Of a stretch of 18,170 bases of DNA, positions 15,241 through 15,394 are shown one piece after another (position 1 is the first letter of the stretch; every line of letters begins with the position of its first letter). The position numbers and the translations under genes were made by a program. Source of the DNA: a virus (lineage: Duplodnaviria; Heunggongvirae; Uroviricota; Caudoviricetes); IMG/VR virus record IMGVR_UViG_2802429219_000014; one strand, 5' to 3'. The notes beneath the pieces were generated by a model that did not search any database, had not been told where the DNA came from, and saw only the letters and a program-made list of their open reading frames with translations.

Positions 15241-15316
15241 GCCGACTTAGCTCAGTAGGTAGAGCAACTGACTTGTAATCAGTAGGTCACCAGTTCGATT
15301 CCGGTAGTCGGCACCA
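15241..15316 (+). tRNA. tRNA-Thr (anticodon UGU), 76 nt with encoded CCA
   Basis: Manual cloverleaf fold: 7-bp acceptor stem, 4-bp D stem, 5-bp anticodon stem with loop CTTGTAA, T-loop TTCGATT; one A-C mismatch in the T stem. Confidence 0.8.
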
Positions 15317-15319
15317 TAT

Positions 15320-15394
15320 GCGGGTATCGTATAATGGCTATTACCTCAGCCTTCCAAGCTGATGATGCGGGTTCGATTCCCGCTACCCGCTCCA
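15320..15394 (+). tRNA. tRNA-Gly (anticodon UCC), 75 nt with encoded CCA, glyT-like
   Basis: Manual cloverleaf fold: acceptor GCGGGTA/TACCCGC, anticodon loop CTTCCAA, T-loop TTCGATT; close to host glyT as recalled. Confidence 0.85.

Follow-up and report, generated by a model that had tools for sequence, protein, structure and literature searches.

The 18,170-nucleotide (nt) IMG/VR virus record IMGVR_UViG_2802429219_000014, called the window below, represents the left and central portion of a lambdoid prophage of the Rac type in Escherichia coli. According to ARAGORN it contains exactly two tRNA genes, one for tRNA-Thr(UGU) at 15241-15316 and one for tRNA-Gly(UCC) at 15320-15394, both on the plus strand and situated between the gene for a Q-like late antiterminator and the lysis genes. 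We consider it likely that the two genes are a functional, host-derived tRNA pair, which forms a self-contained cassette in the slot between Q and lysis genes and supplies decoding of the codons ACA and GGA. The finding as such is ordinary and already known. Lambdoid phages with tRNA genes in this slot have been known since the descriptions of phage 21, 933W and Sf6, the pair is routinely annotated in public records, and hundreds of RefSeq genomes as well as several phage records already list exactly this pair under the names tRNA-Thr and tRNA-Gly; full-text literature searches returned no direct description of the Thr-Gly pair itself. What our analysis adds is modest: the identity of the Thr gene to a host gene clears a doubt about its function, the anatomy of the cassette is laid out, and a testable link to tRNA-targeting defence emerges.

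Identity and integrity of the two tRNA genes

The original prediction, made from the sequence alone, had proposed two cloverleaf-forming genes at these positions, 3 nt apart and both encoding CCA. Both genes were called by ARAGORN and by Rfam, and the CCA ends and the spacing can be read directly; the 3-nt spacer on the plus strand (15317-15319) is TAT, as it is in nearly all relatives in the alignments, with TGT in a few. The tRNA family model RF00005, whose gathering score is 29, was matched over its full length with 73.8 bits (E=8e-15) by the Thr gene and 65.6 bits (E=1.5e-12) by the Gly gene. Both genes thus score above the family threshold as elongator tRNAs, and their cloverleaves consist of an acceptor stem of 7 bp together with the D, anticodon and T arms. 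U8, A14, G18G19, U33, the T-loop GTTCGA and the 3' CCA are present in both, and they are invariant or nearly so across 36 distinct variants drawn from the IMG/VR matches listed.

The Thr gene reproduces host thrU letter for letter (76/76 positions identical to K-12), an identity that had been overlooked. The Gly gene agrees with K-12 glyT at 73/75 positions, and the sole differences lie at 6 and 67, where C6:G67 has become U6:A67 with the pairing kept; the altered acceptor stem that had been predicted for a glyT-like gene is thus a single compensatory pair. The same pair allows the phage copy to be tracked apart from host glyT. The A-C non-pair 52:62 in the T stem of the Thr gene, which had been seen from the outset, is real and flagged in the Rfam alignment, but the doubt it had cast on function did not survive comparison with the host. 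It is also found in K-12 thrU and in all 36/36 distinct phage variants, and since host thrU is 100% identical to the phage gene, the non-pair is a feature of the host gene and not a defect. Host tRNA-ThrU is a working ACA-decoding tRNA whose loss is lethal (PMC12445682). The non-pairs Thr 52:62 and Gly 13:22 are both common to functional host genes. In the host, thrU is the sole gene for tRNA-Thr(UGU), and the thrU and glyT products both come from single-copy genes.

The identity elements recognized by the cognate synthetases are present as well. Threonyl-tRNA synthetase reads G1:C72, C2:G71, G35 and U36, all of which occur in the Thr gene along with its anticodon UGU. The set used by glycyl-tRNA synthetase comprises U73, G1:C72, C2:G71, G3:C70, C35 and C36; the Gly gene has each of them together with the anticodon UCC, and its altered pair 6:67 lies outside the set. 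Judged by their sequence, then, the two genes have everything that is asked of a tRNA-Thr(UGU) and a tRNA-Gly(UCC).

Distribution and sequence constraint

Of 5,426 complete E. coli genomes, 878 (16%) contain the fused Thr-Gly junction, searched for with a 65-nt probe spanning it; the genes are annotated there as tRNAs for Gly and Thr. An exact-pattern scan found the fused pair in at least 120 IMG/VR contigs. It is also carried by species-representative genomes of Citrobacter braakii, Enterobacter hormaechei, Shigella flexneri and Escherichia ruysiae, and by the deposited phages 683R6, 689R5, 606R7, phi467, PhiR47_1, JLK-2012 and SerU-LTIIb. Among the matches listed, the pair stands alone in 51 loci, closes a Met(CAU)-Lys(UUU)-Thr-Gly array in 35 and closes a Met(CAU)-Arg(UCU)-Thr-Gly array in 15.

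The tRNA module is far more constrained than its surroundings. Among 35 distinct Thr-first loci the 154-nt module has a mean identity of 97.9%, a value slightly inflated by the search pattern, which fixed 34 of the 154 positions, while the flanks of the same loci are 71.8% (100 nt upstream) and 70.7% (130 nt downstream) identical. Across the 36 distinct variants, 94.2% of the pair cells hold a standard pair, compared with 24-53% when the partners are slid by 1-3 columns, and the Gly pairs 6:67 and 49:65 covary, with both sides changing. Among the Gly alleles the host form C6:G67 is the commonest and the U6:A67 of the window the second, and U:G intermediates exist; counted over distinct variants, the pair is UA in 21, CG in 12 and UG in 3.

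These data bear on the view that the genes are non-functional passengers, i.e., pseudogenes, remnants of an integration site or recently captured host DNA with no role for the phage, which we regard as very improbable. Near-identity to the host genes could indeed mean recent capture, and some relatives carry decayed copies, including one Thr gene with 11 substitutions and others whose CCA is lost. However, when the region was aligned with the K-12 thrU-tyrU-glyT-thrT operon, no similarity to its promoter, leader or trailer was found outside the two tRNAs, and tyrU is missing from the phage; capture of a contiguous host segment was rejected on these grounds, and the cassette is not simple transduced host DNA. 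Nor would passengers be expected to keep about 98% identity between flanks that are about 71% identical, or to preserve the Gly pairs 6:67 and 49:65 by compensatory changes. The high Rfam scores, the non-pairs shared with the host and the pairs kept across variants led us to reject a tRNA pseudogene, and an integration-site remnant was dismissed because neither gene is truncated and there is no integrase gene next to them.

Several observations on relatives were made along the way. In SerU-LTIIb (L004:1122-1197), a gene annotated tRNA-Arg(UCU) is thrU with G35C, A31G, G24A and two D-loop changes; its position 20 is C, and E. coli ArgRS uses A20. Two IMG/VR loci (L076 and L119) have a thrU body in which G35U, accompanied by A26G, gives a Lys(UUU) anticodon. 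The Thr-Gly junction was also seen on a 423-nt low-coverage contig (L138) of the assembly of the myxobacterium Corallococcus exercitus, where it is most likely a contamination.

Codon demand of the prophage

Codon usage was compared between 42 prophage genes and 42 K-12 core genes. ACA makes up 27% of the Thr codons of the prophage and 10% of those of the K-12 sample, and GGA 21% and 8% of the Gly codons, respectively; the p values of the ACA and GGA enrichment range from 1e-7 to 1e-15 in these large gene sets. The codons read by the pair are used 2.6 to 4.5x more in the AT-richer prophage than in the host core genes. When codons are ranked by relative enrichment in the prophage, ACA is fourth and GGA fifth, after AGA, AGG and AUA. 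The largest absolute excess among rare codons belongs to ACA (+10.5 per 1,000 codons) and GGA (+8.0). Shiga toxin (Stx) phages carry ileZ-argN-argO as cargo for AGA, AGG and AUA. A comparable bias was described for phage SfI, which carries a tRNA-Thr(UGU) gene after Q and in which the share of ACA is 17.3% against 7.1% in the host, and its authors concluded likewise (PMC3636060).

Layout of the cassette and its candidate transcription signals

The location between Q and the lysis genes, part of the original prediction, is borne out by Pfam matches on both sides. Upstream, the Q-like late antiterminator gene (14342-14878, plus strand) matches PF06576 (DUF1133) with 338.8 bits and, weakly, PF06530 (Phage_antitermQ) with 27.6 bits; related phage records label this DUF1133 gene "antitermination protein Q". 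Downstream, the first lysis gene encodes a P21-type holin (16167-16382, plus strand; PF04971, 118 bits), the counterpart of which is annotated essD in a closely related prophage, and matches to lysozyme and Rz follow.

Right after the stop codon of Q lies a candidate late promoter PR' (14886-14914, plus strand) with TTGCAA, a 17-nt spacer and TTCAAT, whose -10 element is weak and which the consensus promoter scan did not report. It belongs to a unit that about 40 of 42 loci have behind the stop of the DUF1133-type Q gene, irrespective of the cargo that comes next, and that consists of TTGAYT or TTGCAA, 17 nt, TTCAAT, a small hairpin (GCTTCGCAAAGC) and a hairpin with a T-rich tail, the latter about 60 nt further on. 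In the window the unit spans 14886-15002, its small hairpin is GCTTCGCATAGC, and the terminator-like hairpin with the T-rich tail, the candidate tR', is at 14973-15002 (plus strand), where it was detected by the terminator scan and is conserved with the Q gene. By analogy with lambda, the unit is probably a Q-cognate late promoter with a short terminated transcript; this RNA would probably measure about 75-80 nt and be of a kind with lambda 6S RNA or StxS. Because the candidate tR' lies upstream of the cassette, the tRNAs would belong to that part of the late transcript which depends on Q.

The cassette also has a candidate sigma-70 promoter of its own at 15150-15177 (plus strand), with the -35 box TTGCGA, a 16-nt spacer and the -10 box TATCAT (9/12 in the consensus scan). 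The upstream sequence includes an AT-rich stretch, and a second -35-like box, TTGACG, is found at 15134-15139. In diverged leaders the site recurs at the same position and with the same spacing as TTGAAA/TTGCAT-16-TAATAT/TATTAT, and in the arrays that begin with tRNA-Met, TTGCAA, 17 nt and TATTAT are placed 9 nt upstream of the first tRNA. This candidate is less likely to be the Q-cognate late promoter, since the same design stands behind unrelated Q families and a methylase gene, and a different promoter and terminator unit travels with the DUF1133-type Q.

Both flanks of the pair are structured. The leader hairpin (15185-15237, plus strand; GGUUCU/AGAACC and GGGGGA/UCCCC) has a folding energy of -20.4 kcal/mol (z = -2.2), has the predicted start of the transcript at its foot and stops 3 nt before the 5' end of tRNA-Thr. 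Its consensus stem was found in 13 diverged leaders, with compensatory changes in 4 of 9 pairs, and in the form GGUUCY/RGAACC plus GGG/CCC it precedes tRNA-Thr in 50 of 127 loci at about 50% sequence identity. It might serve RNA stability, processing or pausing. On the other side, 27 nt after tRNA-Gly, begins a branched RNA (15422-15527, plus strand) with the closing stem CGGCACUG/CAGUGCUG, three hairpins (to 15520) and a U-run at 15522-15527, which folds at -43 kcal/mol (z = -2.85). Compensatory changes affect 8 of its 19 consensus pairs in 12 diverged versions, and 69 of 124 loci have the motif starting 20-39 nt past tRNA-Gly, where chance would give about 0.0003 per 200 nt. It probably serves the cassette as a terminator or for processing. 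In outline it looks like a cloverleaf, without the signature nucleotides of a tRNA.

Further downstream, the terminator scan, which found 8 sites versus 1.7 expected in shuffled sequence, placed a strong terminator-like hairpin with a T8 run at 15756-15783 and a weaker one at 15700-15716 (both plus strand), between the cassette and the holin gene. Comparison of the flanking structures with Rfam at gathering and permissive thresholds gave only sub-threshold microRNA, STnc100 and Hrs13 matches, none of them significant; the microRNA models merely pick up a long hairpin. This hairpin of about 90 nt (15519-15612), just past the U-run, has matches to microRNA families at chance level and is the most widely conserved part of the spacer between tRNA and holin (64-65 of 120 related loci). 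The segment 15591-15783, which ends at the terminator 15756-15783, has a sub-threshold likeness to STnc100, a prophage small RNA (sRNA), of 17.5 bits against a gathering score of 47; a 2026 preprint describes STnc100-, PasD-, PasA- and PasC-type sRNAs in the region between Q and holin of other prophages.

The surroundings of the cassette vary widely. It stands behind Q genes of four families (DUF1133, PF06323, PF06530 and PF03589) or behind a methylase or ORF6N gene, and ahead of holins of three families or of TerB, while in relatives the cargo slot after Q holds toxins and TerB. With its own signals and with so many Q and holin families around it, it behaves as portable cargo, and the promoter- and terminator-like sites, conserved in position across varied backgrounds, would make it a moron if the candidate promoter is active. 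The pair appears to be a portable cassette with a promoter-like site of its own, a structured leader and a structured terminator region.

Role of the cassette

We propose the following course of events. In the lysogen, the cassette's own sigma-70-type promoter would provide basal transcription, and after induction the Q-modified RNA polymerase would read through and transcribe the cassette strongly. Maturation by RNase P and 3' exonucleases would yield two tRNAs, the one chemically identical to host tRNA-Thr4 and the other almost identical to tRNA-Gly2. The extra copies would increase the decoding capacity for ACA (also ACG and ACU), GGA and GGG, from which we infer a fitness benefit for the phage.

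Several points weigh against this role. The codon bias reflects general AT-richness, and AGA and AUA are even more enriched in a phage that has no tRNAs for them. The original prediction had looked to the codon usage of the late genes, and here the result is divided: over-use of ACA and GGA holds prophage-wide, while the five lysis genes of the window showed no significant enrichment in what is a small sample. The major capsid gene of a related prophage is sparing with both codons (ACA in 4 of 30 Thr codons, GGA in 6 of 38 Gly codons). The tRNAs bring dosage only and no new decoding ability. The promoter and terminator calls are consensus matches only, so that the signals have to be regarded as candidates. 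Finally, gene conversion with thrU and glyT, rather than selection at the level of the phage, could partly maintain the identity to the host genes; the persistence of U6:A67 indicates that homogenisation by the host copies is incomplete.

The signals of the cassette can also be understood as those of lysogenic-conversion cargo, which would mainly benefit the host by doubling, from its own promoter, the dose of two single-copy, low-abundance tRNAs and thereby improve expression of AT-rich acquired genes, such as those of other prophages, islands and virulence genes. The promoter-like site and the terminators are conserved whatever the Q type, the cassette is kept in the 16% of complete E. coli genomes mentioned above, and the toxins and TerB in the same slot of relatives fit cargo of this kind. 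However, a site downstream of a late promoter and terminator suits a lytic role at least as well, and no phenotype is known. Conversion as the main function seems quite improbable to us, and it is compatible with a supply of tRNAs to the phage, the two being not mutually exclusive.

Relation to tRNA-targeting defence

A serious rival to supply for ACA and GGA codons is a role in counter-defence: the cassette could sustain translation when the tRNA-targeting toxin of a competitor fires (the Toprim nucleases P2-OLD and PARIS AriB, or toxSAS/GNAT toxins that read the acceptor stem), with the phage copies replacing or out-numbering the damaged tRNAs. P2-OLD, the effector of P2-lambda interference, kills through cleavage of host tRNA-ThrU(UGU), the destruction of which blocks ACA decoding so that the cell dies, and phage tRNA-Thr(UGU) genes rescue (PMC12445682). 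AriB targets the tRNAs Lys(UUU), Thr(UGU) as well as Asn(GUU) (PMC12409363), and the overlap with lambdoid arrays, in which these anticodons recur as Lys-Thr-Gly and Asn-Thr, is striking. The toxSAS FaRel2 picks tRNA-Gly and tRNA-Thr via acceptor pairs 1, 2, 4 and 5 (PMC11559606), and all four determinants can be read in both tRNAs of the window. The sequence of tRNA-Gly(UCC) also has features of a P2-OLD substrate, namely C28-A29-G30 paired with C40-U41-G42, and A37.

The alleles of the window nevertheless make this explanation unlikely. The anticodon arm of its tRNA-Thr is the sensitive host form, with C28-U29-G30 paired with C40-A41-G42 in a 5-bp stem, and that of its tRNA-Gly is identical to glyT. 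Extra host tRNA-ThrU protected little or not at all; resistance to P2-OLD needed changes in the anticodon arm and required both an altered CNG motif and a shorter anticodon stem (PMC12445682), and resistance to AriB involved changes around positions 39-41 (PMC12409363). The Gly pair 6:67, the sole change from the host genes, is not among the determinants of FaRel2, and the portions consulted of the two reports (PMC12445682, PMC12409363) describe no case in which OLD or AriB cuts tRNA-Gly(UCC). With both anticodon arms host-identical, the window tRNAs were rejected as nuclease-resistant decoys.

Relatives of the cassette present a different picture. In 33 IMG/VR contigs, thrU-type genes carry G42Y (G42C or G42U) together with U43C in at least 5 sequence backgrounds (loci include L163:3875-3950 on the minus strand, L019, L121, L014 and L141), and one such allele differs from thrU at those two positions only. 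The double change removes the 3' CNG motif and unpairs 27:43 and 28:42, which matches the two-factor rule of P2-OLD resistance (PMC12445682). The largest group of these alleles is a chimera whose first 25 nt are of the SfI-type tRNA-Thr and which is found in Asn(GUU)-Thr-Gly arrays. The SfI-type tRNA-Thr itself has U28:A42 and a G27.A43 mismatch, and its U28:A42 matches the C28U/G42A described for a resistant phage tRNA (PMC12445682). We regard the altered alleles as candidate escape alleles, a lead and not a finding.

On this basis we hypothesize that the thrU/glyT cassette of lambdoid prophages takes part in an arms race with tRNA-targeting toxins (P2-OLD, PARIS AriB, toxSAS/GNAT), an idea that is tentative and, as matters stand, unlikely. 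If it were true, the host-identical allele of the window would help only by dosage or resupply, and later steps would be seen in relatives as the G42Y and U43C alleles, the recombinants with the SfI type and the anticodon switches from UGU to UCU or UUU. The anticodons of lambdoid arrays would then partly record which host tRNAs have been attacked, and not codon usage alone. The natural alleles, host-identical on the one hand and with an altered anticodon stem on the other, could be used to separate codon supply from defence evasion, or to reveal both.

In the four-gene arrays, Thr-Gly follows a tRNA-Lys(UUU) that appears to have C33 and the anticodon stem UCAAC/GUUGA (L003:2427-2503; also in many IMG/VR loci, such as L009 and L015). 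This tRNA-Lys presumably differs from host lysT, so that the positions of AriB cleavage would differ from those in the host tRNA.

Genomic setting of the window

From the left, the window contains the end of intR, ralR with the RalA RNA, recET, racR, ydaSTUV, a QueH homologue, hokD with the sok RNA, the DUF1367 and YbcO genes, the Q-like gene, 1.3 kb without long open reading frames (ORFs) and the lysis block, which is composed of the P21-type holin, a DUF1327 protein, an ORF without assignment, lysozyme and Rz. The prophage integrase occupies 1-1236 and adjoins ttcA in a related genome. The tRNA island of 401 nt is 100% identical to that of full-length Rac-like prophages inserted beside ttcA. 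The closest complete E. coli genome covers 89% of the window at 98.5% identity; the whole window has no exact match among complete E. coli genomes, and no record matches it in full.

Two neighbouring features were noted. The QueH-family epoxyqueuosine reductase homologue (11910-12596; PF02677, 220.6 bits) belongs to a family of tRNA or deazaguanine modification enzymes and is carried by the same phage as the tRNA genes. The interval between holin and lysozyme (16366-17009) holds the gene for the DUF1327 protein (16366-16731) and a 94-amino-acid ORF without a Pfam match (16725-17009), and in a related prophage (L001) lysozyme follows directly after the holin with no ORFs between.

Comparison with known systems

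The closest parallel is the host operon thrU-tyrU-glyT-thrT-tufB, with which the cassette shares the order Thr-then-Gly and the near-complete identity of both genes (76/76 to thrU, 73/75 to glyT). In contrast to the operon, the phage island has no tyrU, no 116-nt spacer between tyrU and glyT and no thrT, its two genes are 3 nt apart, and its Gly gene carries U6:A67.

Among phage tRNAs connected with defence, the tRNA-Lys/Thr/Asn of T5, which act against PARIS, and the phage tRNA-Thr6 and tRNA-Thr21, which act against P2-OLD, are comparable in that the Thr gene of the window has the anticodon, UGU, of the main target of P2-OLD and of a major target of AriB. In these resistant tRNAs, bases at or close to the cleavage sites are substituted, or the anticodon stem is shorter, whereas the allele of the window has no such change and only some of its relatives do.

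That lambdoid phages carry tRNA genes as cargo between Q and the lysis genes has been described before (PMC3636060). The tRNA-Asn(GUU)/tRNA-Thr(UGU) pair of SfI, Sf6, ST64T, PS3 and 21 occupies the same slot between Q and holin, has the same Thr anticodon and goes with the same over-use of ACA (PMC3636060). Unlike the gene of the window, the SfI tRNA-Thr belongs to a separate lineage with many differences from thrU, and its partner is Asn where that of the window is Gly. Some IMG/VR genes are chimeras of the thrU-type and SfI-type Thr lineages. In the Stx phage 933W and its relatives, the tRNA genes ileZ-argN-argO lie between Q/PR' and stx2, and a related report on ileX is cited within the SfI genome paper (PMC3636060). 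The tRNAs of this set are different from those of the window, and the likeness lies in the arrangement: in both, cargo placed after Q in the late operon serves rare codons ending in A.

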